A stretch of DNA of 63,999 bases, counting the filler, from Jimgerdemannia flammicorona (taxonomy: Eukaryota), in the NCBI GenBank assembly GCA_003990765.1. It is 3 parts of 3 records of this genome, joined end to end, with 100 filler letters (N's around TTAATTAATTAA, not from the genome) between each part and the next. Parts side by side here need not be neighbours in the genome. Positions count along the whole stretch, not along the records: positions 1 to 21,355 come from RBNJ01001470.1; 2 more parts are not named here. One strand, 5' to 3'. A program made the position numbers and the translations under genes. The notes under the pieces are model-generated. The model ran no database searches, was not told the DNA's origin, and saw only the letters and a program-made list of their open reading frames with translations. The first letter of the stretch is position 1, and every line of letters begins with the position of its first letter. This document shows positions 1 through 22,699 of the stretch, piece after piece.

Positions 1-38
1 AAAAAACTACTTAATATATATATATATATATATATATT

Positions 39-730
39 TATTATAAAATGAGTAGATAATAGAGGAAGAGTTTAGAGTGAGATGTGATACTATTACAGTA
101 GATATGAAGGTCAGTGGTAAGAAGTCAAGTAGTAGAAAATAGTAAGCTTATATAAATTTTCATGACAGAACAAGAAAGCAGAATAAAGTGTTTTCCAAAG
201 TAAGATATAATAGATCTACAACTCACCTATAGTACTACAGTATATAGTGGTCTTTATTCAAAATTGAGAACAAAGTTTGGGTAAACAAAGACATAGATCT
301 AACCCTGAAATTCCAGAATTGGAATAGTATATAAGTATCCAGACCTTGCCCCAATCCAAAACAAATGTCTGAATTGGACTTTGTCAATCTATATATATAA
401 CAGACTATTAAAAAACCCAATATAGAAACAATTGAGAAAAAGGTATCAGTCATGTGATCTAGTGTTACACAATCAGTAAACAATGCTAAAAATGGATCTA
501 GACTAATGATGAATATATATCAATATATGATTATCACTTATAGGTTTAAAACTCTAAAAATTATCAATACTTGAAGATACAGACATCAGGTCTAGAGTCT
601 TATGACCAAAGTAGAGTAGAGCCTCAGCACTGGAGCAAATGAAGTGAGTAGAGGTAGACAGGCATCATAGAGTATAGATATACAGGTGTTAGGCCTAGAG
701 CCTTATGCCAGAGGTTGTCTAGTAAATTTT
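39..730 (-). repeat. PLE 3' pseudo-LTR (~690 bp)
   Basis: 39-565 aligns directly with 3941-4471; 41-730 aligns in reverse complement with 4462-5152. Ends against (AT)12 at 14-37. Confidence 0.85.
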
Positions 731-739
731 TGCATTTTT

Positions 740-3700
740 AAACATCACATGGCACATATGAGCAGTGCAGTCTTCAAGAAGGACTTAGAGTAAAGCTGGT
801 ATTTAAGACAGTATTAAGAACAGTAAAACCATTCTTTTGGATAATAATTGGTCATCATATAGTTACAGAGAAACCAAAATGAAGCAAAGCAGTACATAGA
901 GTCTTATCAGGCTATTAATGTAGCCATCAGGCCATATTGTATTGAATGACAAGCAATGGGAGAGGAAAAGCAGAGTAGGGAATAGAGAGGTGGGAAATAA
1001 GGAGAGGGGTGAGAAGTGAAGTTTAAATCTCAAGCCAATCAACCAAACTCAATTGAGTGGTTACAACATCAACAGAATATTCTTTCCTGTAAACCAGAAA
1101 CTCAGTCAGAGACTGATACTCATTAAGCCAATTATAGCGAGATGAGCAGAGTAGCAATAGGCAGTGAGCCTCATTTATAATATATAGATAGAGTGTCTTC
1201 CTAGAATGATTACTCAACCAGTCAACAAACTGAGTACTATGTAGGAACTTAGCAAAACAGCTCATGTGGAATAGTACAACTCAGATTTCCAGGTCTAAGT
1301 AATGGTATGGTCTGGCAGACAAGACTTCCTATTCAATATGATAATGTGGGAGATATATGATATCAAAAATCATAGCCAAGTCTATGATTATGGATGTAAA
1401 GACAATCAAGTCATCAATATACTAGTGGAACTTTAGCCCAGCTATAATGGCTTGACTTAGTGGATGGTTAGGTAATTGCAAGGTATATAACTCATGAGCA
1501 AAGTCAATGAGATTGATGAGATCTGGGGCACAATTTGTCCTCATAGCAATACTAAATACAGAGCAGAAGGAATTGATGGTGGATGTGAACATCATATGAG
1601 TCATAACTATGTAGATAAGACTGAGAATGACATCAAGCAACAAAGAGCCAGAGGAGAAAGCCACAGTCAACAGAAAAGTGAAATAATCAATACACTCATC
1701 TAGTGTGATTCTGGTATAGAATGCAGCAAAATCTCCAGTAGTGATATAGGAACAATCTGATATATTTAGGTAATCTGATCAAACTAATTGTAAAAGTTTG
1801 AGTATATTACATAGAGATGAATAGCATGAATAACCCACATTAAGGCACAGATAGGCCAACTACAGGCAGAGAAAGTAAAATAGAAAATATAAAATCTTGA
1901 TTGTGAGAGAGTTAAAAGCACTAATAATAGGGCATCATGCTACTCATACCTCTTTGTATATCTTGGACAGTGTGTGAAATATGGGTAACTTGCAATCGTT
2001 GGGCTCTATGAAGTGTTCCCAAATTGGTATATAATTCTTATCACTGATACAGAACTTGAGTAGACCAAGAAGGTCTAATCTCACTGATTCCTTAATATCA
2101 TTAATCATAGAGAAATCATTTATATATACAGGATCATAAAGGAGAGACTAAAGATTATTGAGATATAGAGTATGTAGAATTACAGCAAACCTCAGATTTT
2201 TGTTAGTAAGACAGATAGTAAAGTCATCATAAGTATAGATATCTTTGAGAAGGTATCAGAACTTCTTCAGTACAAGTACACTAGACACATTCATCATGGA
2301 TTGGACAGCTTGATTTAGAGTAGTACTCATATAAAGCATAATTTATATATATTTTTATATAGTATAGCAGTCACCATTTTGATGGTACCCAAGCAGAGAT
2401 CTTCAGAATATTGTTGAGATTATCCTTAGAGGTCCAGAAGGTGGTAAGGTCAAGATGCTGTTGAAATAACAATAATGAAATTGGATCAATAGTACTGTTC
2501 ATTGATGCCAACCTAGGGAGAACAAACTTAGGGCCAAAATTCAGCATATATATGAGCTCAGGAGTAAGCCAAGGTGGAGATATATTCATAATAAAGCTCT
2601 CCTCAGTAAACATCTGAAACGGAGAGATGAAAAACTAACTTAAGCAGAAACTGGAAAAAGAAGACACAAAGGCAAAATTCTGAATTGGTGTCAAGGCCAC
2701 TACCCTATGTGGAATAGGGACATTGAGTCCAAACCACACTGCCAAGAAGTCATATAAGACTTCTGGGCTGGGGACCTCTAGTTTTTTTAAGCTAGAGGAC
2801 AGATATTACTGGTATTGTACCAGATTATATGACATTTGGCAGTAGTACACTTGTTGTATTATAGTACAAATGCCCTAGCAGTGTTCTTAGATAAGTGGCT
2901 CAAAGTCAATGAGCAGCTGGTTTCAGAAGAAGTAGAAGAAATAGATGGAGAAGGCAAGACCTTACATGCTCACTTGACCTCTTTTACAGAACTCTCTGAT
3001 ATGGTGGGGAATAGAGGGCAAGGACCTCAGTGGGTCTTTGTAGGCATACCAAAGCATCCAGAACAGCTATGGCAGTTTGGTATAGTAGAGATCAAAGTTA
3101 TACTCACTTCCTTAGCCTTTCCTACAGCATCTGTAGGCACAGTGGTAGAGGGTTGGAGAGTGGGGACACTCTTTTTCAGTCAGATGAAACTGACAGCAGC
3201 AGAAGCAAATGTATATTTAGTATCCAAAGTAATGATCTTGGGGTACTTCTCAAGCTCCTCAGCAATAGCTTTGTGGGCAGTAGCAGAAATTCCATCTTGC
3301 AGAGATGAGGATGTAGGAACAGTCAGGCAGACTGTAACAGCAGTGGCTTTGGTAGTAGTGGTGGCAATATGGTAAGATTGACATATAATAATATCATAAT
3401 CTCAGAGGAGGAACAAAGTAACTTTTGCTCATTTAGAGGTAGATATAATGTAAAAATTCTTACACAATCCTTGAGTAATATCTGCAGGAAGCCTAAAGAA
3501 ATCTAGAGTATCAGATGAGACACTCATGGTTTTGTCAATTTTAGCATACTAATCCTTAGCATGCTGGATAGTAGTGATGTTATTATTCATAGCAGTCTCA
3601 ACTGCAACCATGGCATGGTGCTTAGCTTCTACTGAAGCAATAGTAAGGGTGATACCATGCTGATCCTCAGATAGGAGAGTGATTATAGCAGCTATCTTCT

Positions 3701-3923
3701 TAGAAGGAGTAAACTTTCAGTCAGTAACCTGGGCTCATAGAAAGTTGATATGGTGTTCCTTTGCAGCAGTAATCTCAAGGGCAGAAAGTACTCCAGTACA
3801 AGTAGCACAGAAGAAAGCAGAGACCTCAGCAGATGTAATAGTAACATAGGTAGCCAGGTTGTCAACCTCTGCCAAATTGGCAAAGGAAGTAGTGGAGACA
3901 ATAGTATTACCATCTATATTCAT
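740..3923 (-). pseudogene. PLE coding region: N-terminal helical region plus reverse transcriptase, disrupted by many stops
   Basis: ORF fragments 3735-3923, 2371-2613, 1422-1670 and 1023-1265 plus manual translation. Stops are mostly TGA/TAG/TAA derivable by C>T or G>A changes. Confidence 0.8.
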
Positions 3924-3940
3924 ATTATCTGTTATGTTAT

Positions 3941-4471
3941 ATATTATAAAATGAGTAGGTAATAGAGGAAGAGTTTAGAGTAAGATATAATACTATTATG
4001 GTGGATATGAAGGTTGGCAGTAAGGGGTCAAGCAGTAGAAAATGATAAACTTATATGAATTTTCATAATAGAATAAGGAAGTAGAATAAAGTATTTTCTG
4101 AAGCAAGGTGCAATAGATCTGCAATCCACCTATAGTACCACAGTATATAGTAGTCTTTATTCAAAATTGAGAACAAAGTTTGGGTAAACAAAGACACAGA
4201 TCTAATTATAGAATTCTGGAATTAGAACAGTACATAAGTATCCAGACCTTGCTCTGATTCAAAGCAAATATCCAAATCAGGCTTCATTGATCTATATATA
4301 TAATAGACCATTAAAAATCCCAATATAGAAACAATTAGGAAAAAGGTACCAGTCACATGATCTAGTGTTACACAATTAATAAACAATGCTAAAAACAGAT
4401 CTAGACTAATGATGAATATATGTCAATATGTAATTGTCACTTATAGGTTTAAAAATATAAAAAATTATTAG
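3941..4471 (-). repeat. PLE 5' pseudo-LTR (truncated, ~530 bp)
   Basis: Direct copy of 39-565; differences in the aligned stretch are transitions. Confidence 0.85.
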
Positions 4472-6610
4472 ATAATCTCTAGTATGAGACTCTAGGCCTA
4501 ATGCCTGTATATCTATGCTCTGTGACACCTGTCTATCTCTGCTTGCTTCACTCACTCTGGTGCTGAGGCTTGACTCTACTTCAGTTGCAAGGCTCTAGGC
4601 CTAATGTTTGTACCTTTGGATGCTAACAATTTTTAGGTTTTTATATAAATCTATAAGTAATAATCACATATTGACATATATTCATCATTAGTCTAGATCT
4701 GTTTTTAGTATTGTTTACTGATTGTGTAATACTAGATTACATGACTGGTATCTTTTTTCTGATCATTTCTATATTGGGTTTTTTAATGGCCTGTCACATG
4801 TATAGATCAACAAAGCCTGATTCAGATATTTGTTTTGGATTGGGGCAAGGTCTTGGATACTTATACACTGTTTCAATTCTGGAATTCTGGGGTTAGATTC
4901 ATGTCTTTGTTTATCTAAACTTTGTTCTCAATTTTGAATAAAGACCACCATATACTATAGTACTATAGGCAGATTACAGATCTATTATACCTTACTTTGG
5001 AAAACACTTTATTCTACTTTCTTGTTCCATCATGAAAATTCACATAAGCTTACTATTTTCTACTGCTTGACCCCTTATCACTAACCTTCATATCTGTCAT
5101 AATAGTATTATATCTCACTCTAAACTCTTCCTCTATTATCTACTTATTTTATAATATACAACAAGACAGATAATATAAATATAGATGGTGATGCTGCTGT
5201 CCCCACTGCTTCCTTTGTCAATTTGGTAGAGTTCAATAATCTGGCTATCTATATTGCTACTATGTCTGCTGAGGTCCTTGCTTTCTTCTATACTACTTGC
5301 ACCAGAGTGCTTTCTGCCCTTGAGGTTGCCACTGCTATGCCAACTTTCTATGAGCCCAGATTACTGACTGAAAGTTTACTCCTTCTAAGAAGATAGCTAC
5401 TACAATCACTCTTCTACCTGAGGATCAGTATGGTGCCACTCTTACTACTACTTCAGCAGAAGCTAAGTGCCATGCCATGGCCATAGTTGAGGCTGCTATA
5501 AATAATAACATTGCTATCACCCAGTATATTAAGAACTAGCATACTAAAATTGATAAGATCATGAGTATCTTATCTGATGTCCTAGATTTCTTTGGGCTTC
5601 CTGCAGATATCACTCAAGGATTATGTAAGAATATTTACACCATATTTACCTCTGAATAAGCAAAAGTTACTTTGTTTCTCCTCTAAGATTATAATGTTAT
5701 TATATGTCAATCATACTGTCTTGCTGCTGCCACTATTGCCAAAGCCACTGCTATTGCAGTCTGTCTGACTATCTCTGTGTCCTTATCCCTGCAAGATAGG
5801 ATTTCTGCTATTATCCACAAAGCCATTGCTGAGGAGCTTGAGAAGTGCTCCAAGGTCATTACTTTGGGTGCTAAATGTACATTTGCTTCCACTGCTGCTG
5901 GTTCTGCCTACCTGAAAAAAGAGTGTCCCCACTCTCCAACCCTCTACTATCATGCCTGCAGGTGCCACAGGAAAGGCTAAGAAAGTGAGTGCAACTTTGG
6001 TCTCTACTATACTGAACTGCTGTAGCTGTTCTGGATGTCTTGGTATGCCTACAAAGGCCCACTGAGGTCCTTGTCCCCTATCCTCTACTATGTCAGAGAG
6101 TTCTATAAAAGAGGTCAAGTGAGCATATAAGGCCTCACCTTTTCCATTCATTTCTTCTACTTCTTCTGGGACCAGCCACTTATCAACTTCAAGCCACTTG
6201 TCTAAGAGCACCACTAGAGCATTTGTGACACAATGCAATAAGTATACTACCACCAAACATCATATCATCTAGCACAATGCTGATGATATCTGTCCTCTAG
6301 CTTCAAAAAACTAGAGGTCTCCAGCCTGGAAGTCTTATATGACTTTCTGGCAGCATGGTTTGGCCCTGATGTCTCCATTCTATATAGAATAGCAGTCTTG
6401 ACACTAATTCAGGATTTTGCCTTTGTATCTTCTCTTCCTAGTTCTTGCTTAAGTTAGTTTTTCATCTCTCAGTTTTGGATGTTTACCAAGAAGAGTTTTA
6501 TTATAGATATATCTCCACCTTAGCTTATCTCTGAGCTTACATATATGCTGAATTTTGGCCCTAAGTTTGTTCTCTCCAGGTTGGCATCAATGAACAGTAC
6601 TATTGACCCA
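4462..6610 (+). mobile_element. Inverted partial PLE copy (full pLTR plus 5' part of ORF), head-to-head with the first copy
   Basis: 4623-6610 is the reverse complement of ~2482-4471; ORF track pairs 2836-3375(+)/5783-6256(-) and 235-483(-)/4711-4896(+). Ends just after the LNFGPKFV motif, where LINE sequence begins. Confidence 0.85.
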
Positions 6611-6892: not shown

Positions 6893-6979
6893 ACTCGACT
6901 CTTTCACCAGTAATATTCAGGTGACACAAGACTCAGACAACACTTTTTACTATATTTTTAGTATCCAGTGACTATCAAC

Positions 6980-8895
6980 ATGGATGGCAATGATCGAACT
7001 GGTGAGTATACTAGTCAGGGGGGTGACAGCACCTTTGGCTGACAGTAGGTGGGGAGGAGGAGAGATGGTTTGAGAATGCTGGGGGCCTCGAGAGCTAGCC
7101 AAGGCCCTGGTGGTGGAGGGAGGGGCAGGCTAAAGTAGAGAGAAGGGGAGAGGTCGACCTTCACTGATAAGGTCAGAATGAGAAAGATGGCCCCAGGCCT
7201 TGATGGTTGGCTGGGCCTGAGGATGGTGTCAACGGCTGCTGCTGGGGGACAGGGAGGTGTACCCAGGGGAGTCTCAGGTGGCAGGAGAGGAGCGGGAGTA
7301 GGGGCTGGAGATGTGACTGTTGATGGGGCTGTGACTGGGGGTCTGGCAAAAAATCCAGATGTGATGGTGATTGGCAATTCAGGACTGGGAGTGGGCACGA
7401 GGCCCGGGGACCTGGCAGATGGGGTGATGGGCATGGTGTCGGCCCCATTACTCAAGAAGTTGAGGTCAGAATTCGCAGTCACAATGTGCTTCAGGGGCTT
7501 GGCAGTGATGGCAAGGATGATTTTAGGGCTGGTGGTACAGAAGGCTAAGGGAGCAGTGTCAGTGAAGTTTTTGAGGGGAAAGGAAGGGGTTGAGGTGGAG
7601 TTTGAGGAGGAAGACACCTTATTGGCAGCCATGGAGAAGGGGGTGATGATTGGCGGGGTTGTGGTCCCTATGGCCTAGTGCATGTGCTGGGACCCCAGAG
7701 TGGTACAGTTGATGGTGTTGGACCTCCCTACTGTGTCAAAGAAAAGGACCAGAGAGTTGGTTGTGGAGGCGATCAAGGAGTATGGCAAGATTGTAGATGT
7801 TGGATTCAAGGTCTGAGAGGGCATAGAGCTTAGAACTGGCAATGTCAATGTCAGGGTGAGGCTGGCTGGGAAGGAGAATATAGGGAAGTTGAGAGACTGG
7901 CCAGCAACACTGAGGTGGAGATTGGTAGAGTGTAAGGTCACAAGGGTGAAGGGGACTCAAGAGGAGAAGAAGGACCTATTGGAGGCTCTGGAGGACCTGG
8001 AAGGGGCAGTTGCAAGGAGGAGATTGGTCTGGAAGAAGTTTGAGGCCAGGATGGTGGTGGGGGAGATAGATGGGAAGAGGGTCCAGATGGAGAAGGGGGC
8101 CTGGGAGAAGATGCAGGAGAGGAGGATCCAGAAGGAGCTGTTAGCGAAGTTGGGTGGGGGTAGGGCTGGTGGAAGCTCAGGGGAGGGAGTTGCAGGGTTG
8201 CAGGAGAGCACCTGGGCTGAGAGAAAGAGATGGCCCAGGGCAGGGCTCAGATTGGAGTAGGGGAGGGGAGAGAGGGCAATTTGGAGGCAGATGCCAAAAT
8301 GGGTGAGGGTGTGCACCCTCAGTATAGTGTTCCGGATGGGGCAGAGGGGGAGGAGGAGCTGATGGATGTGCCGGATGAGGAGTGGGATGAGTCAGTGAGG
8401 AGGAGCATGCTGGTGGACCCCAAGGTGGATGGGAGACAAATCACTCAGGGGGCAGCAGAGGTGGTAGATGAGGAGAAGTGGATGTGAAAGACCCTGGAAG
8501 GGGTAGTGGCTGAAGAGCTGGGGGGTGAGGACTTCAGGGTGATGGAGGAGAAGTATTGGGAGGAGATCCTATAGAGGGAGGAGGTGCCGAGGAAGATGAG
8601 GAATGAGATCCTGGCTATCCTCCTGGAGTCAGTTGAATATCAAGTTGATGATCAGCGAGAGGGAGAGCTTAGGAGAATTGTGAGTGACAGGGCACTTTTC
8701 TTGTGGAATTCAAGGAAGGGACTAGAGAAGTGGTGTGCAGTCTGCTTGGACTACTGGGTGGATATGGAGGAAGTGGACAGGGTGGAATGTCAGGAAATCT
8801 TGGGGGCACTGGATGCTCAGAATAATGCAGAGGGTGACTTAGAAGCTGAGTGGCGCTTGAATCTGGCAGGGGATGAGATGAGCATAGAATTATAG
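6980..8895 (+). pseudogene. LINE ORF1 (RRM-like core), interrupted
   Basis: Fragments 7178-7678, 7856-8260, 8230-8487 and 8584-8895 are homologous to intact ORF1 at 37116-39149. Confidence 0.8.
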
Positions 8896-8926
8896 GTTGG
8901 GGTCTCTATTGCAACATCTCTTCAAT

Positions 8927-11900
8927 ATGAACAGTACAACTAGGATATTCTCATTGAACATTAATGGGTTACGGGGGGTAGCTAGGAGGAAGTATATATT
9001 TGATTGGCTTAAGGGACTGGATGTGGACCTCTTCTTGTTGCAGGATGTTCATTATGAGGCAGATGTGGACTTACAGGATTGAACTAAGGAATGGGGGAGT
9101 GCAGTAGTTTGGAGGGGGAAAGTGTGTATTCTTATTTGGAAAGGGATGGGGGACATTGGGGACATTGGACATTGGGGGTCTCGGGTGGTGTAGAGAGTGT
9201 GGAAGAGGCCTAGATAGGGCTCACTGATGGTTGGGTCCTATTACTGCCCAGCTGAGAGAGGGGAGAGGGTGGAATGGATTTGCAGATTGAAAGAGGCTGG
9301 TGTATTGGGAGAAGTTGGGTTAGACTGTATGGGGGGTGACTTCAACATGGTATGGGATAAGGAGTTGGACAGAACTGATGGAGGGAGAGGCATACAGGGT
9401 GAAAGCAGTGGATTGGGTGACTGGTTGGAGACAGAGAGATTGTGTTCTCTAGTGGACTCAGGAAGACACTTTTGGGCTGATCAGTGGGTGTACACCCACT
9501 AGGCAGCAGGACTGGACTCCAGGATTGACTGGGTTCTAACAGCAGAGTGTTGGGGAGCAGATGTCTGGTCAGTGGTCTGATCACTGGGGGCTGCTTGGAG
9601 GGGAGAGGTTTGGGGGAAATGAGGATGGGCCTGGATATTGGCAGCTAAATTCTTCCTTGTTGGAGGATAGGGTGTTGTGGGAGGGATGGAAAACAGAGGT
9701 GGTTGGAAATATCAGCAGGTGGCAGGAACAAGGCCTGGGGATTGGGGACCACTAGAGAAGGCTGAAGGTGAAGGCTCAGAGGTATTAGAGGGAAGCAGAG
9801 AGAGGAAGGAATGCCCAGCGAAGGTGGTGGGTGCTGTGGGCCTCGCGGCATCTGGCAGCACTCATGGAGAGGTGAGCAGAGGTGCTGGAGGATGGGGCCA
9901 TGACTGATTGGCATATTGCGAGAATCTGGCAGGAGGTAGAGGAGCTCAAAGGGGTGCTATAGAGAGAGGAGGAGGAGTAGTTGCAGAGAATGGTGGTCCA
10001 CCTGCAGTGGCAGGGGCTTGAGGAGGGGGAGAGGTCTACCAGGTTCTTGTCATGGTTGTTACAAGCATGACGAATGAGGCAGTGGTGGGAGGGAGTTTTG
10101 GATGAGAATGGCGAGCTGGTGGTAGAGACTCCGGCAATTCTGGGCCTATTGCGAACCCAGTGGGGGAATCTTTAGAGTGAGGAGGAAGGGAGATTAGATG
10201 CTCTAGACATTGAAAGGCAGCTGGGGGATTGGCACCTGGACTCTGTGATGGGACTTGGGGTATTGGGGGACCCAGTGAGTAGCAAGGAAATTTGCAGGGT
10301 AGTGGCCTCAATAAGTAAGGAGACAGCCCTGGAAGAGGATGGGCTTCTCTGGGATTTTTGGCAGAAGATGACCGGGGTGGGTGAGGTGCTAGAGGAAATG
10401 ACTGCTATGTGTGATGGAGTTCTTCAGTCTGGTGCCTGGATTGGGGGACAGTGCTTAGGGCTAGTCTCCTTGCTCTATAAGAACAAGGGTAGGTGAGAGG
10501 ATTGGAAGAACTGGCGGCCAATTATGCTTCTCGACATGGACCGCAAACTGGTGATGAAAATCTTGGTGATGAGGTTGCAAGGAATCACTCAGCAGGTGCT
10601 TGGTATGGAGCAACATGGGTTTGTCAGTGGTCAGTTGATTCAAGATGGGACAGCCTGGGTTCATGGAGTGATTGAAGGTGCCTGAGCAATAGGGGTGGAT
10701 GGCAGATTGGTGTTTCTGGACCAAGAGAAGGCTTATGATAGAGTGTGGAGAATATGGCTGGAGGGAGTACTGAAGCAGATTGGTATCCCCCCAGGGTTCT
10801 GAGGATCATTAATCAGCCTCTTGGAGGACAGTCAGGCAGCATTAGTCATCAATGACCACAGGGAAGTGACCTTTCCCCTGGGATGTGGGGTACCACAAGG
10901 GGACTCCTTGTCACCCATATTGTATGCCCTTTCCCTGGAGCTACTACTGGACAGGATTCAGCATAAGATTGGAGGTTTGGATATTTTAGGGGTAGACTGG
11001 AAGGTAGGGGCCTTTGCTGATGATATGGTGGTCGGGCTGAACTCCTTGGGGGATGTGAGAGAGTTACAGAGGACTGTGGAATTGTATGAGCGGGGTTCTG
11101 GTGCTAAACTAAACTGGCACAAATGCAAGATACTGGTGCTGGATGCTGGAATTGTTGGTGGCGATGTTATTGGGACAGTGGTACTGGCTGGTGAACCAGT
11201 ATGCTACTTGGGGATCTACTTTTTGGTGTTCAGATCTCTTCTTTCCCAGGCATGGTGGGACTGTAAACTTCTGGAGTGGGGTAATATTTTGCTGTGATGG
11301 AGAGGCTGGCATATGTCCCTTACCAGAAGGGTGATGGTGTTAAATGTGTACTGGATGCCAAAGCTGTGGTATGTTGGATATCATTTGGACTTCCCAATCT
11401 GGGTGGTCAAGGGGTTATTGAAGATGGCAAGGTCATGGATCTGGGGAGGGCAGTGAAGCCAGGTTGGTTGGGAGGTGCTCACACTGCCCTTGGAAAGAGG
11501 TGGGCTGGGCCTAGTAGACTTTACTAAGTAGCTTCTATGTCTGAGAGCCTGGTGGCTGTGAAGGGCAAGCAAGCTCAGGGGTCAGGAGTGGGTACCACTC
11601 ATGCAGAGGTTGTGGGAGGTTCAGTACTCCCCATGTGGTGGCTCCAGTGACCTGCTTGTGATGGTGGCCATGGAAGAGAGCAGGAGGATGCGGTTTATGG
11701 ACTTTTGGTGGGGGGTAGTGGATAGTGCTAAGAAAATTGGACTTCGGTGATGAGGTGATGAAGCCAAGGAGGTTTGGGGACTGCAGATGTGGCAGTGGGA
11801 CAGGCTTCTATTGGGTGGGGTTCTGGTGGAGAACTTTCAGCTTGGCAAGGGTCTGGAGTATCTATGAGGCCTAGGTGGAGACCTGTAGCCAGAAGCCTGG

Positions 11901-12565
11901 CAGAGGGTTGGAATTGGAGAGAAGTGGGATTGGAATGGACTCTGGCTTTGGAGCAAATGGGTGTGGCAGTGGCTGCCCCCCAAGTTCTGAGTAGTGTGGT
12001 GGTAGGTCCTATGGCAGAATGTGATATTGAACTATCAGTCTGGACACTTGGTGGATGGTGGGGTATTTGAGTGCAAGGATTGTTTCAATGTTGGTCAGGA
12101 GGGAGGAGTGGTACAAATATCTGAACATTGGCTTAGTGAATGTGAGGTTTTGGGGGAGTTTTGGAGATGTATTATAGATAGGATAGGGCTGGGTGCCGTG
12201 GAGGGAGAGGGAGGGGGGAGATGGGGAGAGCTTCACTGGCAACTAGTGGGTGGGGTTGGGGACGAATGGCTGACCCTTGATTGGGCTTTGGCTATGTGGG
12301 TTGGGTTGACTGGGCATTGGTTCATGTCTTTGAGAAAGGGTGTCAGGTTGGGGTTGGTGACAAGATGGCCTGGTGGGAATGGTTGCTGTTGGACATTTTG
12401 AATAGCTGGTGGTGAGGTTGGGGGATGGGTGGGAGGTACCGCAGGGGTCTAGTGCAGTATATCTCTCAGAAGAGTGATGGGAGGGTTCAGGTAGTGGGTA
12501 ATTGGGTAGTGCTTGGGCAGGGAGAGGTTGAGGGGGAGGGGTTGGGCCCCCGGGGCATTGGTTGA
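8927..12565 (+). pseudogene. LINE ORF2 (APE endonuclease, RT, C-terminal Cys motif), interrupted
   Basis: SLNINGLR..FLLQDVH, GGDFN, SDHW, QGDSLSPILY, FADD and CKDC..EH..SEC motifs. Confidence 0.9.
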
Positions 12566-12629
12566 GGGTGGGGGTGACATTGTATTGTTAACACTATAGA
12601 CTTTAGTAATAAAGGGCAGTCCAAGAGAC

Positions 12630-12695
<66 letters not shown>

Positions 12696-12923
12696 TGGAA
12701 GAAAAAAATCCTTCAACTTCAGAGCAGAGTTGCAGTTTGTTATGTACCTAGTGTTTCAGAGAAATTTAGTCTCAGGAGATCTTTTTAACTTTATGAATAA
12801 TGTCCAAACTGAAGCATTTTGATTCATCATCAAATCTTTAATGTGAACGGAAACCGTCATTCGAAGCAATCAAAGAGATAACTTGTATTGGATAAAATAA
12901 ATAAATAAAGATATTTGGCTTGA

Positions 12924-14858
12924 TTACAATTCAGAACCAACAAGACCCGCAACGCCTCCATGTCTTGGCACAATTTTGACCTTATACTGCAACGGGATAC
13001 ATGTTGCTCCATTCCCAACCTTGTACTTGACAATCTCAACAGGCACGCGCTCTCCCCGAGCGTCAGTTGCGAACTCGACACGGAAGCAAGCCAGAAACCT
13101 AACAATGCCGATGAATAGGACGCGTTCGGCCACGTTCATGCCAACACAGACGCGGCGGCCAGTCGAGAAGGCGAGGTGGGGCCGCTCGCTGAACTCTGGG
13201 GTGGACTTGTTGGTGGTGAGCACGTAGTCCATGTGACGTTCCGGGGAGAAAACCTCAGGGTTCGGGTAGCGTTTGGGGTCATGGTGGATGGCGTGAATAT
13301 TGATGACTATGGTAGTGCCCTTCGGAATGGTGTAGCCACGATAGGTGTCGTCCTTGGAGGTTGCGTGGGGAATGGAGACGGGGGCGGCGGCGCGGTAGCG
13401 GAGAATTTCCAAGATGATACATTGTACGTACTGGAGTCGTTCCTCTGATTTGTGAAAGGATTGAAGATGTTTCTGTTAATCGAAGGGAAATGACGGAAGT
13501 AGCTGCAAGAGTGGAGGTAATCTATAAAAATTTCGTACCATCACTCTCATTCGGAAGTCTGTTGTGACCAACGACGTGTTCAATTTCTGCAAAGGCTTTC
13601 TCTTGCACTTCAGGATAATGGGCAAGAACTGCACACAACCACCGCATTGTAATCGACATTGCCTCACTCCCTATGGTTTGAGTATCGTAATCAATTTACA
13701 GTGCATACAACCCATACATGCCAGCCAAAGAACAACCCAATAACTCACCCGCAAAGCTCAAGACAGATCCGATATGCGTCAACTGTAAGTCCGACAGATG
13801 TTCACTTCCTCGCGACGTCATGATCTGGCCCATCACGGATTCAATCGTCGTCCCCTCCTGCAACCGCTTCTTTAGCCCAAAAACCTGCTCGCCCCAGAAC
13901 CGTTCCAGATTGTCCCTGACTTGAATAGCACGCCGCAACGTCTCCCTCCGTAGGATTTTGAGCACAGGGAGAAACTCTGCAAGTTGCTCGGAAGGGGTGA
14001 TAAGCATAAGGACGTCATGCCCAACTTGGTTGCATTTTTTGATGCGCTCGTCGTTGGGCTCAATGTCGACGCCGTAAATGATAGCGAATATTGTGGAGAC
14101 TGTATAAAAATCGAAAATTTCGGCGGGATTGACGGCGCTGTCGGGCGAGGACCTAGAGGCCTCGTAGAGGCTTTTAAGCATGGCGTTTGTCCGGACGTTA
14201 ATGGTGCGTTGGTAGTTGTTGATCTTCGTCTTAGTCAAGGCGGAATGGGCTGCATCACACAGATTGAGAATAAGGCAATGGTAAGTTGCAAAGTAAATCA
14301 AGTAAATTTGGGAGAAAGTTTGTCAAAACTTACCAATACGGCGGATTTCCTTCCACTCTTCGCCGTAGGTCATGAAGGGAATCTGAGCGCCTTGATCTGA
14401 GCATGTGAAAGCTGTTAGGTTCTGCAAACGACAAAAGGCGAATCATTTCAACCCAACTTAATCATCAGCAGTTCGCACCCTGGACACATACCTCCTCTGG
14501 CCAACGCAATCGACACATCCGATAAACTCCTGGAGGAGTATATAGTTCCGCGCTCCACGATGAGATCTTTTACCACCTCGATGGAATTGAGCACGATCCA
14601 CCGCTGCACACCCATCTTGAGGGTGAAAATGGGCCCAAGCTCTTTGCTCATCTCCGTGAACACGATCTCGGGAGGGTTGCCACTCAACTGGTGGATATTA
14701 CCGATGATGGGCAGGCCCGGCGGGCTGGGAGGAAGGGCCGCATCGATCTTGGCACGCCGCGAGGCCTCAGCGAGGCGGCGTATGGCGAGAACAGCGAGGA
14801 TGCCAGATGCGACGAGGAGGTAGGTTTTTGAAGGGGAGGAGGGTTGGATTGTCAACAT
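12924..14858 (-). CDS. Cytochrome P450, ~527 aa, 5 exons: 14858-14492, 14396-14334, 14249-13749, 13670-13539, 13444-12924
   Basis: N-terminal TM anchor, PPSPPGLPIIGN hinge, C-helix WKEIRR, I-helix FAGSEAMS, EILR (ExxR), PERH, and heme motif FSTGRRVCVG. All introns are GT-AG; the joined length of 1584 nt is in frame. The exon 2 acceptor could alternatively be 6 nt downstream. Confidence 0.93.
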
Positions 14859-15844
14859 GATGGATCAATTTAACCAGGAAAGAAAGCGAAAGCGAAAGCA
14901 GGATAAGGTCTAAGACTGATGGTGATTTTTGAAGTAAAACGGATACCCTCCATATGGATAAAATGTGGCTGGAAAGATTCCCAAAAACCAGGAGGCCAAA
15001 TTAAACCATACCACGAGTATCGCGAAGTGAGAAATAGTGAGGGTGCTAATAAACTAATAAAGCTAACAAAGAGCGAGCCTACATCCTTGTTCGCCTCGTG
15101 GAAATTGCTTCATTAGCGAAAGCACATATTTGCTTGCATTTGTGCATGTCGTACAGTGGAGGAGGGATTGTAGAAGAGAAACAGCTTGAGACCCACCTAC
15201 CATCGCGAAACTTGCGTGTGCCCACTAGACATTAACAACAAAACCCTACTGAGAACCAATATCGAGATGCAAAGAATGAAGAGCTTAAGTTTACCTCGTG
15301 GCAGGGTCAGGCGGATGCATTATACTAAGGGATTCCAAGAGAACGGATAGCTTGAGTCGGGCATCGATAGACAGTATTTGGCTACCGCCAAATCAATGCC
15401 AACTGGTTTCCCTGGGGCCCTAAGGTCAGCTCCATCAAGCAAAGCCCGGAGGAAGATCCAAGGAGTCACCATGTTGTGAAGATCGGTGTTGATTATATTC
15501 AAAAATGATAAGGAGCGAGATGTGCTATTTTTGGAGCTTCACATTAAGGACTGGTTTCAGATTATGTCATGTTGGCGGTTCGCACGTGACACGGTACAAT
15601 CCCGAACCTCTCTGCCAGACCGACACCAAAACCACGATTTATACCACATGCACCGGACAAAGGAGAAGCGCAATAGTAGAAGGAAACATTGTTCATGATA
15701 CCGTCGAGCGCTTACTGTTACAGATTCCACGTCACCCTTGAACAACCTTATAGTTCTCAGCCCTCCATCATCTTTTACCAACTCCTTCCCTTCTCTCCCT
15801 CGCTATGCTACGCTACCCTCATCCCACCCTCTTTCCTGTCCTTA

Positions 15845-17914
15845 TCACTTCTCCTCCACCTCTGCCTCTGTGGTTTTGAACGGCGTGACAAGCATCTTGG
15901 AGAATTCCGTGATGTCTTCCACGCCGCGCACTTCTTTGACCAGCAGCGGCATGCGGATGATGTGAAAATCTTCGTACAGGTCATAAATTTGGTCCAGGTA
16001 CTTCTGCTGCATTTTATGGCGCACCGAACAGTGTTCGCAGTTGGAGCCTGCGGATCCGAGCGTCAGTCAGATGACGGGGATGTGGTTAATGGCGGTTCTT
16101 GGGTGGGGATCAATTATAAAAGATGGGGTGCCACAATAGGAAGACTAGCCATGCGAAATGAACGTGACAAAAAACGGACACAAAAAGGATATATCCCAGC
16201 TACTTCCCAAGAAAACCCCATCTACCGATTCCATCATTAACAATCGAATATAGAAATCCACCCACCTGGCTTGGGGAACAGCAGCTGGTTAACGACGATG
16301 TTGTGCGTGTCAATGTTGTACGCCGTCAGCTCCTGGATCATGCGCTCCGTCTCGTACAGAGACAGGAATTCGGAGATGCACACACAAATGAACGTCGTCG
16401 TGTTCTGGTTTGGTAGAATACATGAAAGAATATGAGCGCACATTTTTCTGCTGGCCTCTATAACACAGAAATATCCATAAATCTGGTTGCCTGGTAATTA
16501 CGTGACACCGAAGCAAAATACCTCGCAAAGTAGACAGGCGAACATAGAAAGCGATACTTACAGGATCCTTGAACTGGTTGTTCACTTCGGTGATGATGCT
16601 TCGCATGTCCTCGAGCTTTGTGAACATGTCGTCTTGGTTGCCGTTCAGGCCCATCATGCCCGACATCTGGATTTCAGTTAAAGGACGAGGAAGGAAGGTA
16701 TTGGGGTTAAAGAGGACAATATCACTATAATTTGATGTTTCCCATTACCCCAATCGAGCCTGCCTATTTTACTCCGACATGCCACCAAACCATAACAAAT
16801 TTTCATCGCTCTCGCCGAATTTCTGCACACAAAAACCATGCAACGCAACACCCGTCGTGTGAAAAATTTCTAGACCCGGCTCCGCGCGCGCGCACGAACC
16901 TGCTGGAACATGGGGCCGAACCTCCCGCTGAGTTGGCTGATCTTGGCGAGAGCCTTCTCGAGTACGCTCGGGAAGGAGAGGAAGCGGAGCGTGTGGCCTG
17001 TCGGCGCGGTGTCAAAAATGATGACCGAATACTCCATCGTTTTCACCTGCCTATGGAGGATGAAGAAAGATACAGTTGGGTCAATGCGATGGGACTGTGA
17101 TGGAATCCCACGCTTGCCTGCCAAGGCAACCCACGAACAGTTCTACGCACGATCTCGAGAACGTGGGAGAATTAATGTGACGTGGCCACGTACTTCATGA
17201 CCTCTGCAAATCCCATGGCCTCGTCCACACCGGGGATGGCAAACGCTAGGTCCTGGAACATGGAGCCCATTGCGTTGCCCTGGTCAGCTGTTGTGAGAGA
17301 TTAGGCTTGGGTAATAAATAAGCCGATTCGGCTATGATCAAAATGCATGCAAGCGAATAAACATGCAGGCTATTCTAAACCGTAGTGTTTTGTCCGGGAA
17401 TACATACATTGCTCGATCATCTCTTGTATGCTCGATGTCGGATCAATTTCCTAGGAAAGAGAGAGGAGGGGGCGGTGAGAATATGATATTCAGTACTATG
17501 GCTATCCAAATGGCGGAGCAACCCAGTGTTTTTCGTCGCGTATTCGTTTTTTATGTCTCTAACCTATATTTTTTCGCTATCACAATTATCCACACGTCGA
17601 TGCCAAAAATATTTGTCACATTAGATATGACCTACCATCGCATACAGATTAGGGAAACCGTTGACGAGGGTGGCCTCCTTACTGAATTTCTGGCCGAAGG
17701 CATCCGACAAGTTGTGGGCCGGGTCGGTGGAGATGAGGAGGACGGAGTCGCGAACCTTTGCCATCTGGGTGGCAAGAGAGCAGGAGGTGGTTGTCTTGCC
17801 GACGCCGCCTTTGCCACCGACGAAGATCCAGTGCAGTGACTTCTGGTCGAGCACGTTCTGAAGGGTGGGGTCGAGGGGCTGGAGATCGTCGTCGTCGTCA
17901 AAGGTGTCGGACAT
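15845..17914 (-). CDS. GET3: GET3/ASNA1 (ArsA-family) ATPase for tail-anchored protein targeting, ~337 aa, 7 exons: 17914-17636, 17450-17408, 17287-17194, 17050-16900, 16666-16562, 16404-16266, 16047-15845
   Basis: [15 protein letters not shown]-loop, [43 protein letters not shown] and CEHC zinc clasp. GT-AG introns; 1014 nt in frame. Confidence 0.96.
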
Positions 17915-18537
17915 GGTGTTGTTCTTGTTGGGTGGGAGTGTTGAGAAGGTTGAGGAAGGTCTAGTACACTACACGTGTTCTACTGACGTCACCTCAATAA
18001 AGGGGCACACCGACAACCTCAGCCACCCATACCCTACACAATTTTACACCTAGTATTGGTTAGACCCAACCGGATCGAGCAGAACGAGCCCGGACGGTCG
18101 AGACCCCAAGGCTGTATCACTCCGCCAGTTCCAGGGACATGCTTTCTCCGGAAATCTGCCAGCAGCAGAAGTATTTCGACGTTGTTCCAATGGATATCAC
18201 AACTCTGTGCTAAGACGCTATATACAGCACCTGAGATGGCAAAGTCACGGATTAACAAACAGCTTCACTAAGTGACTGGTCCAAAGTGAATGCCATCCTG
18301 GGTATGTACGTTGAAGTCTAAAGTGTTGTTCTTCAATTAAGTAGTGGGGATACAGAACGTTACTATTATATTGAGCTTGATAGCTAATGATTTTTGGCTA
18401 TTGAATAAATGTCAATAATAGGGTTCTCGTCTTTGATGACATCACTCCCAATCAGACGTCACCAAGTTTTGGCACACCCCTCGTGCAAAAGCCAAAAAGC
18501 CAACCCCACATCCTTCACCCCTCAACTCTCATCCAAA
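17915..18537. promoter_or_regulatory. Putative bidirectional promoter between GET3 and YIF1
   Basis: 623 bp between divergent ATGs. CACGTG (17972-17977) and TGACGTCA (17984-17991) lie near GET3; TGACATCA (18436-18443) and GACGTCA (18455-18461) lie near YIF1. Confidence 0.55.
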
Positions 18538-20079
18538 ATGTACCAACAACCATATAACTCGCAGGACTATTACGATCAATCCCAGTACGTCCCCTATGGC
18601 ACCCAGGGGTCCGGCCTACAGCAGCGCCACCAGGCCCATTCCCCACCCCCCTTGCAGCATCCAATCCCCACCCACCCGATCCCCTCGTTCTGCGACGCGC
18701 CGTCGCCTCAGCCGCCGGCCCAACAGCACCAGCACCAACAGCAGGCGAGAGGCCAGCCCATGGGGTCGCCGCAGCAGGGTATGCCAGATTTCTACCAGAA
18801 CTTTGGGTTCAACGACCCGGCGGCGCAGATGGGAATGCAATTCGCGGGAAGCGCTATGAAGAAGGGGAGCGAGTACGTCGAGCAAAATGTGAGTTGGGGG
18901 GAATGAGGATGAGAAGTATGATGAAATGGCGGAGTCCATGGGCAGATTTTTATGGACAAAGGGAGAGGAGAGGGTACTGTGTGGTGGACGCCCGGCACAA
19001 GGACGTGCTCATGACAGCCGTGACGGAGGTTGTCTGACGGTAGCAACCGATGTGTATGTACCATGGAACCGTAGAGGTACTGCTCCAAACCAACGATACT
19101 ATTTCGCCGCCAAGCGATATCCAGCATATCAGTCAATTCGTCTGTGAATCTGATACATCACGGTACGTCCGTCTAACTCCCCCTTCATATCCTACCCACC
19201 TCGCGTGCAGATCAACCGCTGGGTGAATATCCCGGCCCTCAAGCACTACTTCAAGGTCAACAACCTCTACGTGGTCAACAAGATTCGGCTACTCCTGTTC
19301 CCATGGCGGCATAAGGTAGGATATTGGTGGCAAGCGTGAGTGAAGGCGCGGTGTTTTCATAGTCTTGGTGGGTGGCAGGTTGGAGGTCACGGACGTCCGA
19401 CCTCGCGAACGACGTCAGAGGACGCGTGCGCACGAGAACTGATTCGATGCTCTCCACTTCATACTTACATTCCTCTTCACATCACCGAACATAGCCTTGG
19501 ACCCGCATGGTGAAGCGGTCCGAGAACGGACAGATGGAAGGGTTCCGGCCACCGAGGGAGGACATCAACTCGCCGGATCTGTATATTCCTGGTGTGTATT
19601 ATCTCGGCTTTTTTTTTTTTTTTTTTTTTTTCTCTGTTGCCGTGGGTTTTACTGGTGAGGTTAGGGCGTTGGCGTATACGGAGTAGGAAAACGGGTACGC
19701 TTATACGGGCGGGAAGTTGTAGGGCTAGCTATAGAGGGAGACGGAAATGGCTGTTTGCGATCCCCCTTCCCTCCCTTCCTTTCCCTCTCCTTTCATTTTT
19801 TTATTTTATTAAATTTATTTTTTTATTCCTGGGATTTTCGTATTATTTGTACGCTCAAAGGAGATGGTTTTTCTAATGCTCAGCTATCTTATTTTATCCA
19901 CCTTGCCGGCGGCCACTATCTATATTGGAAAATGATTCCACAGTCATGGCGTTCGTAACGTATGTGCTGTTGGTTGGCTTGGTGACCGGACGGGAGTCTA
20001 AGTAATGACATCCATCTACTCCACTGCTAACACGCCATACCACTCTCCGATGCACCAATCTCACTTCCTTCCTCTTTTT

Positions 20080-20125
<46 letters not shown>

Positions 20126-20646
20126 CCTCTTGCAGATTTCACCCTGAGGTCCTGGGCTTGACGGCATCGACGGCGTTGGGTGTGGTAACGTTTGAGCTTA
20201 TTTTCATCCGACTCGGATGTTATCTCCTGAACATCACGTCCGAGGCGGCGGTGCTCGACCTGGTCGCGTACGCCGGTTACAAGTTCGTCGGCATCGTCGT
20301 GGCCGAGCTTGCCGAGCTAAGCATGGCGCCGCCCTGGCTCGTGTGGGGCGCATTTATATACGCCGCGCTGAGCATCGGGTTCTTCTTGGTGAGTTTTTAG
20401 TGTTAGATTCTTCTTACTCGTGGGTAGCGCGATGTATGCACACATACACACCCAAAACCTGCCCTATAACATTGCAAGCGTTAACATTAAACGCACTCAA
20501 TCCAACAGCTGCGCTCCCTTCGCTACGTGGTCCTGCCTGACGCGGGCACCTCCACGGTAGCGAACCCACAGCGCAAACGACGAATGTGGTTCTTGCTTAT
20601 GATTGCGGGGATGCAGTTGGTGTTCATGTTCTTCTTGGTGAGATAG
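18538..20646 (+). CDS. YIF1: YIF1 (Yip1-family ER-Golgi trafficking membrane protein), ~333 aa, 6 exons: 18538-18888, 19211-19315, 19495-19591, 19944-20001, 20136-20388, 20509-20646
   Basis: [71 protein letters not shown] and FFLLRSLRYVVLP. GT-AG introns; 1002 nt in frame. Confidence 0.95.
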
Positions 20647-21355
20647 AGGAGTTGGGTGCGGTGAGTTGAGAATAAGGGTTAGAGATGAAGGAAACAGGTA
20701 GGCAAGGTGAGCGGTATCGATATGTGCAGGGTGATAAAAATATATTGTTATCTCTCTCCGGTCTATGCGACCCTTCTTGATTTCCATTGCTTTGTATTTC
20801 CGGCCGTATGTATGTCGTCATGGGCAATTGAGTTTTGTGAACGCTTTCCTTGTCTTCTATGGTTTCGAAAGAAGGTGTCGCGTGTGTGGGTGCCGCGTTG
20901 TACCTCGTGTGTATATCATTATCACTATCTCCATTTTCTATTATGCGATGAATACATAGTTCAATTGTGCACAAGGAGATGATGAAACGTCGCATAGAAA
21001 CTAAGGACCCTTACGATTTTTGGTTATATAGGATTCATTTGGTTCTACAGCGCCAAACGTATTGGCGGTTTTTCTCCTTTTCGGATTGGCAGAGGGTCTA
21101 TTAAAACGAAATTTGAGAAGAGAGGTTGCATGTGAAGGCGTTTGCTGGGGTGCCTCTTTCGAGCTTCGCGTGTACCGCATGGGTCGTGATCAATGGGTGA
21201 TCGCCCGGAAATTTGGATAGATCAGACGGACCGAATTTGTCTGGCAGGGCCATATGGTGATTGATGGTACCCTTTTTCGGCGGCGTTGGCATATAATGGA
21301 AGCGGAGATAGATTGATGGTATATGAAATAGAAAGGGTGAGACAGAAAGCAAGGG

Positions 21356-21455
21356 NNNNNNNNNNNNNNNNNNNNNNNNNNNNNNNNNNNNNNNNNNNNT
21401 TAATTAATTAANNNNNNNNNNNNNNNNNNNNNNNNNNNNNNNNNNNNNNNNNNNN
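21356..21455. other. Artificial contig-joining linker
   Basis: N44-TTAATTAATTAA-N44, which has stops in all six frames; identical to 42808-42907. Confidence 0.97.
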
Positions 21456-22670: not shown

Positions 22671-22699
22671 AGTTTTTGTCTTTTGTTGTTTTAGCAAAG

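Follow-up and report, generated by a model that had tools for sequence, protein, structure and literature searches.

Methylation-like C>T erosion of transposable elements at and beyond CpG in the Mucoromycota fungus Jimgerdemannia flammicorona

Transposable elements of Jimgerdemannia flammicorona, a root-associated, early-diverging fungus of the Mucoromycota, are eroded by C>T changes that fall most heavily on CpG and extend to CpA and CpC. The changes strike both strands alike, scale in a clock-like manner and leave CpG intact in genes, introns included; DNMT1-like and DIM-2-like genes are present in the genome. We consider it probable that the transposons are methylated by a DNMT1-type enzyme at CpG and by one or two DIM-2-type enzymes at CpA and CpC, and that gradual deamination erodes them.

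The window analysed here is a 63,999-nt stretch composed of three contigs, with N-linkers at 21356–21455 and 42808–42907. The initial annotation had placed it in a non-Dikarya fungus, in agreement with the source organism; GET3 homology alone reaches the Mucoromycota level only.

Results

A palindromic Penelope-like element

The repeats at 48–4163 are pseudo-LTRs of a Penelope-like retroelement (PLE), whose insertion form is a ~9-kb head-to-head palindrome (Table 1). That these repeats were pseudo-LTRs had been proposed before, and their direct and inverted arrangement, together with a predicted PLE-type reverse transcriptase (RT), bears this out. Across 4,427 columns, the left arm shares 77% identity with that of a younger copy; its GC content is 0.356, and it has 0.7 CpG per kb. 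In the outer pseudo-LTR, 39–561 contains the first of the two copies compared in the initial annotation, while 562–743 is found again as the central loop; outer and inner pseudo-LTR columns have the same modal base at 457 of 465 positions.

The 679-aa ORF2 frame is stop-free in four of the eight young copies among those listed. PF00078 matched one of two scanned frames weakly (E 6e-6), PF26215 is present in look-alikes and in one homologue, and the frame reads as having PLE motifs. On the basis of PF00078 and the PF26215-bearing look-alikes, the frame is assigned as a putative PLE-type RT. Pfam scans of the 679-aa frame and of two arms translated in all six frames revealed no GIY-YIG endonuclease, and ORF1 matched no family. 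Rfam found no ribozyme and no hammerhead match in one partly decayed copy, a search that minimal variants could escape.

Copies of the family are scattered over many contigs as 9-kb palindromes that are nearly full-length and end in poly(A), and no target-site duplication was seen for them. An LTR retrotransposon, a DIRS element and an assembly artefact were ruled out, as the arms differ by ~4–17% and the frame appears to be a PLE-type RT. Since each palindromic insertion carries paired arms, arm pairs can serve as a mutation clock, which makes the family useful as a built-in one.

Table 1. Features of the window (positions along the whole stretch)
Feature	Position	Strand	Remarks
Left arm of palindromic Penelope-like retroelement, heavily C>T-decayed	37..4463	- (sense on minus)	Layout common to other genomic copies
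Outer pseudo-LTR	39..743	-	39–743 versus 5156–4447: 108 transitions, 3 transversions
Decayed ORF2, putative Penelope-like RT	770..2806 (approximate; projected from younger copies)	-	679-aa frame
Decayed alanine-rich ORF1	3000..3930 (approximate)	-	Open stretches in younger copies
Inner pseudo-LTR part	3942..4463	-	Contains the second repeat copy of the initial annotation, 3951–4163
Central loop of palindrome, ~165 nt	4464..4628	.	151–166 nt in 7/7 other measured elements
Right arm of palindrome, ends early at 6610	4629..6610	+	82.6% to 2482–4471 inverted
LINE, AP endonuclease and RT, poly(A) tail	6901..12643	+	PF03372 E 3e-7, PF00078 E 8e-27
Gene island (control)	12860..20650	.	P450-like (minus), GET3 (minus, 15846–17914), putative YIF1-like (plus)

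Transitions at and beyond CpG

Between 48–260 and 3951–4163 we counted 35 differences over 213 ungapped sites, all of them C/T or G/A as had been claimed (P ~1e-6 against a background transition share of ~0.67, derived from T>C and transversion rates). The second copy does start at 3951, but it runs to 4163 rather than ending at 4160. The reported lack of transversions and indels is likewise accurate within these 213 sites and fails beyond them: the whole direct repeat (35–564 versus 3938–4468) shows 75 transitions, 5 transversions and 1 gap, and the inverted arms (2482–4471 versus 6610–4623) 311 transitions and 19 transversions. The differences are a mixture of lost CpG and non-CpG sites, as described, with 18 of 35 in columns that show a CpG in at least one copy of the family and 17 elsewhere; the latter comprise eight CpA, three CpC and two CpT C>T changes, and four changes away from modal A. 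The scarcity of CpG noted for 1–6600 was also confirmed, with three CpG in 1–6610 (o/e 0.01) against an o/e of 0.7–1.2 per kb in 13001–21000.

On the scale of the family, 28 arm pairs contain 10,749 transitions and 512 transversions. When every column in which any copy has a CpG was removed (1,049 of 4,429), 3,679 transitions and 336 transversions were left, and the window's own arms retained 164 and 13, respectively. The per-arm hazards at CpG, CpA, CpC, CpT, T>C and transversions were 102:20:9.6:1.9:1:0.4 in the eight youngest elements and 104:20:10.7:3.0:1:0.5 in nine of middle age. In the 11 oldest, the ratios to T>C climb (CpG:CpA:CpC:CpT:T>C = 216:33:17:4.5:1), and the clock is therefore not perfectly constant. 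CpA load follows the transversion count (Spearman 0.87, n = 28). The CpA/CpG hazard is 0.15–0.20, so that CpG is struck ~5 times harder than CpA. The effect of the 5' neighbour, A > G,C > T, has the identical ranking for CpG and CpA, which suggests one chemistry behind both kinds of hit; in each of the three age groups, TCG ranks lowest among the CpG contexts (0.163, versus 0.353 for ACG).

The LINE of the window has a CpG o/e of 0.10. Among 30 LINE copies, CpA, CpC and CpT changed at 6.4%, 4.6% and 1.5%, compared with 0.8% for T>C, the same non-CpG order as in the Penelope-like family. The survival of the excess after CpG-column removal, the context rates, this shared order and the CpG kept in introns (see below) together indicate that the non-CpG excess is real, as the initial annotation had claimed.

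Ordinary CpG decay, in which multiple hits mimic non-CpG change, draws on the dominance of the CpG class and on the 18 CpG-column sites of the window. However, it leaves unexplained the transitions that outlast CpG-column removal, as well as the CpC changes, which are underivable from CpG by transitions and yet occur at ~10 times the T>C rate. In addition, neither the CpA nor the CpC rate falls steadily as the nearest CpG becomes more remote, over distances of up to 20 nt, which also speaks against spill-over from adjacent CpG as the main cause. We therefore give an excess confined to CpG practically no credence.

Strand symmetry and independence of the hits

Private CpG hits numbered 2,896 on the plus and 2,776 on the minus strand, the 56 arms showing no heterogeneity (p 0.23), and loads are similar in both arms of each element (p 0.24). 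Neighbouring hits lie on the same strand in 768 of 1,503 pairs (0.511; null 0.498 +/- 0.013). Same-strand packets of at least three were rejected (P<=0.005), packets of two were borderline (P 0.05), and the dispersion was 1.03 in the 20 youngest arms. The excess of close pairs (1,503 versus 1,403 +/- 15) was not read as clustering, because the null permits both bases of one CpG to be hit and then discards such pairs; it is probably a product of that construction. The C>T changes in repeats are strand-symmetric, independent and time-proportional, as expected of decay linked to DNMT1 and DIM-2.

Editing or error during retrotransposition, whether cDNA is edited by a cytidine deaminase or the RT itself is biased, would suit the fact that both deeply tested families are retroelements. 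It is hard to reconcile with the equality of the strands, with changes that grow with age, and with a ubiquitin pseudo-copy (204 bp, in CpG-free DNA) that was struck too (37 C>T/G>A versus 9 reverse changes), while the gene itself retains CpG. Such an origin appears highly improbable.

Sparing of the gene island

The C:G>T:A excess is present in repeats and absent from single-copy DNA, where it is gauged by CpG retention and not by counted mutations. The genes of the island, in which GET3 is named by homology and the YIF1-like gene after the sequence reading of the initial annotation, are backed by spliced RNA contigs. Their introns keep 122 CpG in 2,723 bases (o/e 0.96) and the intergenic stretches have an o/e of 0.57–1.07, versus 0.01–0.19 in repeat blocks. 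Among 25 loci compared, no gene duplicates longer than 400 bp with at least 80% identity were found: the P450 paralogue is 67% identical, ubiquitin-family paralogues are 66–75% identical and the EF-Tu-domain loci did not align.

RNA contigs and genome showed only 26 differences in four runs. The gene-region differences of runs X2 and X3 were transitions in 16 of 16 cases, a small hint against a transition bias strictly confined to repeats. These 16 would be expected if transition-biased mutation acted genome-wide and were masked in genes by selection. Against such masking stand the CpG levels of introns and intergenic DNA, the Ts/Tv of 0.7–1.2 in eleven gene-paralogue alignments (partly saturated at 66–75% identity) and the polyubiquitin tandem, with 21 transitions and 12 transversions; we hold it to be barely tenable.

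Methyltransferase and repair genes

All eight PF00145 candidates map to five methyltransferase genes, each with the motif VI ENV. One of these has 9bap/9baq, which we take to be Neurospora DIM-2, as its closest solved structures (E 4e-47), with DNMT1 behind (E 6e-31), and an exon of a second gene matches DNMT1 chains best (E 3e-4). Classed by best match, the set would comprise a DNMT1-like enzyme, one clear and one possible DIM-2-like enzyme, and two DNMT2-like enzymes. The QT/ET motif VI that defines RID/Masc1 (PMC6572847) was found in none of the five genes, which come from a fragmented assembly and a loose initial screen. The homologue search proposed in the initial annotation thus yielded DIM-2-like and DNMT1-like genes but none of the RID type. 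The genome also has a TDG-like fragment; four HhH-GPD matches are presumably of MutY, NTH1 and AlkA types by motif, none being MBD4. With the TDG-like fragment present, an explanation of the high CpG rate by lost T:G repair is unsupported.

RIP takes place between fertilisation and meiosis, and strikes both copies of duplicates longer than ~400 bp with 80% identity. Classical RID-dependent RIP, with premeiotic, homology-triggered bursts that prefer CpA, would account for C>T changes only, which fall in repeats but leave the CpG of the gene island alone, with CpA as the top non-CpG context, and would agree with the similar loads of the two arms. The five-fold higher rate at CpG contradicts the CpA preference, and the candidate genes have ENV instead of QT/ET. 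Moreover, the same-strand share of 51% differs from the ~92% single-strand clusters given for Neurospora (PMC7296669). Classical RIP is accordingly very unlikely here.

Discussion

Methylation followed by gradual deamination is the explanation that we favour. A DNMT1-type enzyme would methylate transposon CpG, while one or two DIM-2-type enzymes would methylate CpA and CpC, and CpT scarcely. The resulting 5mC would turn into T singly, on either strand and continuously after insertion, and targeting would operate via chromatin, not homologous pairing. The initial annotation had named two mechanisms. Dense non-CG methylation fits our results, but the term RIP-like applies only loosely to a process that is strand-symmetric and clock-like, strikes CpG ~5 times harder than CpA and has no RID-type enzyme found beside it.

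A CpG loss of ~100 times the T>C rate exceeds passive 5mC decay in animals. Given this rate and the presence of a TDG-like repair gene, passive deamination may fall short. Another possibility would be an active, RID-independent repeat mutator, in which low-dose deamination of repeat-chromatin cytosines in each generation is the work of a DIM-2-like enzyme or a partner, either mitotically, as in Zymoseptoria, or premeiotically, as the DIM-2 branch of RIP. It would amount to a weak RIP-like defence and not to passive decay. The hazards of ~100 times T>C at CpG and ~20 times at CpA despite the TDG-like gene, and the DIM-2-like genes, one clear and the other possible, are consistent with such a mutator, for which PMC8016269 offers a Dim2-dependent mitotic precedent. 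However, strand-polarised clusters are absent, packets of two being borderline and larger ones rejected, and CpG, not CpA, is dominant, with the same 5' neighbour effect at both. We regard active mutation as unlikely. About as improbable is the proposal that Endogonales possess a RID-independent, DIM-2-driven active repeat mutator, and that the mutagenic arm of RIP predates Dikarya and RID. If true, classical RIP would have refined a DIM-2-driven mutator at a later stage, gating it by homology and tying it to meiosis.

Because TpA/ApT stays at ~1 across 1–6000 despite the decay, and divergence of the arms by transitions is ~20 times that by transversions, RIP indices and LTR-based dating are misleading in the Jimgerdemannia lineage.

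Comparison with known systems

The element shares with known Penelope-like elements the apparent PLE-type RT, the pseudo-LTRs and the head-to-head inverted layout. Penelope with an endonuclease has inverted pseudo-LTRs, whereas the endonuclease-less Coprina and Athena are described as mainly telomeric and without a palindromic layout (PMC3846280, PMC8557442). Unlike the latter, the Jimgerdemannia family is dispersed and palindromic, although no endonuclease match was found in it.

The erosion resembles RIP of Neurospora crassa in that C:G>T:A changes are concentrated in repeats, CpA is the top non-CpG target and AT-rich relics remain. It differs by the absence of same-strand clusters, the dominance of CpG, the gradual build-up and the lack of a detected RID motif. 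Basidiomycete transposons are reported to show CpG/TpCpG hypermutation (PMC4352252) and Tuber melanosporum a CpG(+CpA) bias (PMC3318451). Both share with Jimgerdemannia a C>T bias in which CpG dominates and which is put down to methylation and deamination; in Jimgerdemannia, however, TCG is the least mutated, the CpA and CpC components are clear and no RID was found. A RIP-like claim outside Dikarya exists for Entomophthorales, where it draws on dinucleotide indices and is qualified by its authors (PMC10515909), but these fungi belong to another phylum, and our rates derive from alignments, not indices.

A kingdom-wide survey found repeat-linked mutation signatures almost exclusively in ascomycetes (PMC12543289), and we found no paper on such C>T repeat erosion in the literature on Endogonales. 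The present case is a Mucoromycota genome with strong non-CpG C>T erosion of repeats and DIM-2-like genes, in which no RID-type gene was found. Phycomyces blakesleeanus, of the same subphylum, has a near-identical enzyme set (DNMT1, DIM2 and two DNMT2), and its transposons are methylated at CG and CHH, according to the excerpts available of PMC11258239 and PMC7862722. There, methylation itself has been described, whereas Jimgerdemannia is known from the mutation footprint alone.

The closest parallel in context order is Zymoseptoria. With Dim2, cytosine methylation of its transposons amounts to 61% at CG, 22% at CA, 8% at CC and <0.01% at CT, and in Z. tritici, which has rid, >98% of Dim2-dependent C>T changes occur at CA and CG is spared (PMC8016269). 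CpG is struck ~5 times harder than CpA in Jimgerdemannia, where no RID-type gene was found. Both processes are confined to transposons, in genomes with a DIM-2-type enzyme (by sequence match in our case), and the order CG>CA>CC>>CT describes methylation there and mutation here. Jimgerdemannia may thus be a natural genome in which the contribution of DIM-2 is separable from that of RID, and its methylome is predicted to show CG:CA:CC:CT at ~100:20:10:1–2.

Results

We read the repeat, on its sequence, as an endonuclease-less Penelope-like element. Its genomic copies are built alike: two arms of ~4.43 kb face each other head to head across a loop, which spans 151-166 nt in all 7 elements measured. 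Each arm is bounded on either side by a pseudo-LTR, and the poly(A) tails point outward. An inverted second arm was present in all nine stretches chosen without a known partner match, being partial or interrupted in two of them, and direct tandems occurred in two further stretches. Each arm carries an alanine-rich ORF1 and a 679-aa ORF2, which matches PF00078 weakly and whose look-alikes bear PF26215. The motifs of ORF2 are presumably of Penelope type, and the arm ORFs matched no endonuclease family. Among 12 flank pairs, of which contig ends truncate 3, no target-site duplication was seen. The ~9-kb palindrome, with its outward poly(A) tails and no endonuclease match or target-site duplication seen, would fit fold-back priming of the cDNA.

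Features of the joined stretch and counts of differences between paired segments
Feature	Positions	Compared with	Transitions	Transversions	Remark
Contig G000:C1470	1-21355				Assembly size 231 Mb
Penelope-like family	37-6610				Also stretches L031-L046, L083-L094; inserts as ~9-kb head-to-head palindromes, ~160-nt loop
Pseudo-LTR segments, direct	48-260	3951-4163	35	0	Ungapped, 213 sites
Third copy, inverted	39-743	5156-4447	108	3
Long inverted match	2482-4471	6610-4623	311	19
Right arm of element	ends at 6610				Followed by LINE
LINE	6901-12643
RNA contig of run X1	12860-16050				Spliced; P450-like gene, long 5' region (intron 15225-15294), GET3 3' end
T>C sites of RNA run X2	15791-15869, 15169, 17247				9 sites; T>C on plus, A>G on transcribed strand of GET3 and P450 gene
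Artificial N-flanked linkers	21356-21455, 42808-42907				Join three separate contigs; distances across them biologically meaningless
Most AT-rich part	21456-25000				GC 0.20
Tandem arrays in AT-rich block	23704-23931, 25411-25562				19-nt and 9-nt units
Direct repeat pair	24877-25713	33584-34422	133	10	8.7 kb apart; probably LTRs of another element
Partial tandem duplications in 42909-53010	42909-44072	49292-50428			Ts/Tv lower, ~4
	46393-48976	50431-52999			

The initial annotation had claimed that the pseudo-LTR copies 48-260 and 3951-4160 differ by transitions only, without transversions or indels, and that CpG is nearly absent from 1-6600 and abundant in the gene island. The first claim is borne out for the segments aligned in the table, but not over the whole direct repeat, which has 75 transitions, 5 transversions and 1 gap. 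The second stands: only 3 CpG remain in 1-6610 (o/e 0.01), while the gene island has the expected frequency. Its introns hold 122 CpG per 2,723 bases (o/e 0.96), and four intergenic stretches have o/e of 0.57-1.07. In the most AT-rich part CG, CA and CC are depleted and CT is enriched, as expected for the late stage of a C>T process.

For the mutation spectrum, 82 arm pieces were projected onto one reference arm, and sites were classed by whichever base was most frequent in the 31 pieces richest in CpG, columns with support below 0.6 and ambiguous neighbours being excluded. The copies range from 77 CpG per kb at GC 0.53 down to 0 CpG at GC 0.36, the window copy being among the most decayed. 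Post-insertion changes were taken from 28 two-armed elements (26 inverted, 2 direct; unpaired pieces excluded), whose arm pairs differ by 10,749 transitions and 512 transversions in 103,295 sites. Removal of the 1,049 of 4,429 columns with CpG in any copy leaves 3,679 transitions and 336 transversions (164 and 13 between the window's own arms), in agreement with the earlier claim of C>T change beyond CpG.

Per-arm hazards by context, relative to T>C
Elements	CpG	CpA	CpC	CpT	Transversions
8 youngest	102	20	9.6	1.9	0.4
9 middle	104	20	10.7	3.0	0.5
11 oldest (CpG nearly exhausted)	216	33	17	4.5	0.6

The CpA load correlates with both transversions and T>C (Spearman 0.87 for each, n=28 elements). 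In the youngest group the 5' neighbour modulates CpG (ACG 0.353, GCG 0.269, CCG 0.256, TCG 0.163) and, in parallel, CpA (0.088, 0.066, 0.057 and 0.032 after A, G, C and T). The context order is matched outside CpG columns by 30 copies of the LINE: CpA 864/13,444, CpC 760/16,629, CpT 193/12,889, T>C 278/35,563 and transversions 335/78,525. Transitions cannot turn a CpG into a CpC, and neither the CpA nor the CpC rate falls off steadily as CpG becomes more distant, up to 20 nt. Together with the excess outside CpG columns, and given the column classes used, these observations lead us to reject a multiple-hit CpG account.

Of the RIP clusters in Neurospora, ~92% are described as consisting of C>T changes alone or of G>A changes alone (PMC7296669), whereas in our 20 youngest arms neighbouring changes fell on the same strand in 768 of 1,503 cases (0.511; null 0.498 +/- 0.013). 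Private CpG changes were split 2,896 to 2,776 between the two strands, and this balance was homogeneous among 56 arms (chi2 62.2, df 55). For the 20 youngest arms, simulation rejected same-strand packets of at least 3 (P<=0.005), packets of 2 being borderline (P 0.05), and is insensitive to a process making one change per round.

The nearest matches of GET3 exon 1 are proteins of Mucoromycota, and a methyltransferase exon from this genome shares 100% identity with two Jimgerdemannia flammicorona proteins and 56% with one from Endogone. These matches place the host outside Dikarya, as first supposed, which removes the objection that it might be an ascomycete known for RIP. All eight PF00145 candidates in the genome fall in five genes, named here by contig. 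C8187 matches the RFD, BAH and DUF7893 domains weakly, and among solved structures it comes closest to 9bap/9baq (E 4e-47), with DNMT1 scoring lower (6e-31); we take 9bap to be Neurospora DIM-2. C11271 (stretches L102/L103) resembles C8187 and is ambiguous in class, DIM-2-like or DNMT1-class. C3657 matches DNMT1 best, though weakly, C1744 is DNMT2-like, and C58 with C2181 presumably forms a second DNMT2, judged by its motifs. DNMT1-superfamily genes number three, against two reported in Phycomyces. Motif VI is ENV in all five genes; the QT or ET described for RID and Masc1 (PMC6572847) occurs in none of them in this fragmented assembly, and RID is likely absent from the genome.

Gene paralogues (11 alignments at 66-75% identity) have Ts/Tv of 0.7-1.2 and keep their CpG, and a polyubiquitin tandem (85.6% identity, 229 nt) has 21 transitions and 12 transversions. 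A ubiquitin copy in CpG-free DNA (L153:934-1137, contig G000:C16222) differs from the gene, whose own CpG are intact, by 37 C>T/G>A changes and 9 in reverse, falling at CpA 16/29, CpG 11/22, CpC 7/30 and CpT 3/26. This one-sided erosion suits chromatin targeting, but the 204-bp copy is shorter than the usual RIP length. The pseudo-copy adjoins a small CpG-rich island.

Between the gene island and the contigs of RNA runs X2 and X3 there are 11 and 5 differences, every one a transition. For run X1 the counts are 4 transitions and 2 transversions, and the distantly matching run X4 differs by 4 transversions. X2 and X3 give a weak hint against strict confinement to repeats, weak because 7 of the X2 differences lie in one cluster and at least 3 of those in coding sequence fall at third positions and are synonymous. 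The T>C sites of X2 (7 clustered; 4 read UAG>UGG on the transcript) may be strain SNPs (X2 has indels as well), may stem from a burst of clustered C>T changes in the lineage of the window, or may reflect A-to-I editing. The X1 contig represents either gene overlap or an assembly merger.

Discussion

The hypermutation signal is real. The pattern departs from classical RIP in three features (CpA as the preferred context, same-strand clusters and a RID-type methyltransferase), and it behaves like Dim2/DNMT1 methylation-linked decay. Of the two readings first offered, RIP-like mutation or dense non-CG methylation, the latter is the probable one: DNMT1-type and DIM-2-type enzymes would methylate cytosines of repeat chromatin in the CG, CA and CC contexts, and the methyl-cytosines would deaminate gradually, one at a time and continuously. 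The CpG rate in these repeats is higher than is usual for passive 5mC decay in animals, and this despite the presence of a TDG-like gene; for these reasons the main rival is a low-dose, enzyme-assisted mutator of repeats. We consider such a mutator unlikely; the one in Zymoseptoria spares CG, but the J. flammicorona repeats do not.

Among the papers listed in our searches none was on the pattern in Endogonales, although a published Endogonaceae genome paper may touch on it. A kingdom-wide survey places repeat-enriched signatures almost only in ascomycetes, its main text being without Endogonales, though its supplements may list J. flammicorona (PMC12543289), and a RIP-index signal is reported, with caveats, for Entomophthorales (PMC10515909). 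The TpCpG hypermutation described in basidiomycetes (PMC4352252) is not the pattern seen here. The head-to-head layout is known from endonuclease-bearing Penelope, where it is attributed to self-priming (PMC3846280), whereas the J. flammicorona family shares the layout with no endonuclease matched; endonuclease-less clades are mainly telomeric by description (PMC8557442). Phycomyces, a relative, is reported to have DIM2, DNMT1 and two DNMT2, with transposable elements methylated at CG and CHH (PMC11258239, PMC7862722), and a 2026 review also lists its DIM-2 (PMC13297926); methylation is thus known there, while J. flammicorona offers the mutation footprint alone. In Dim2-proficient Zymoseptoria, methylation of transposable elements is given as 61% at CG, 22% at CA, 8% at CC and <0.01% at CT (PMC8016269), an order that parallels the mutation rates in J. 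flammicorona.
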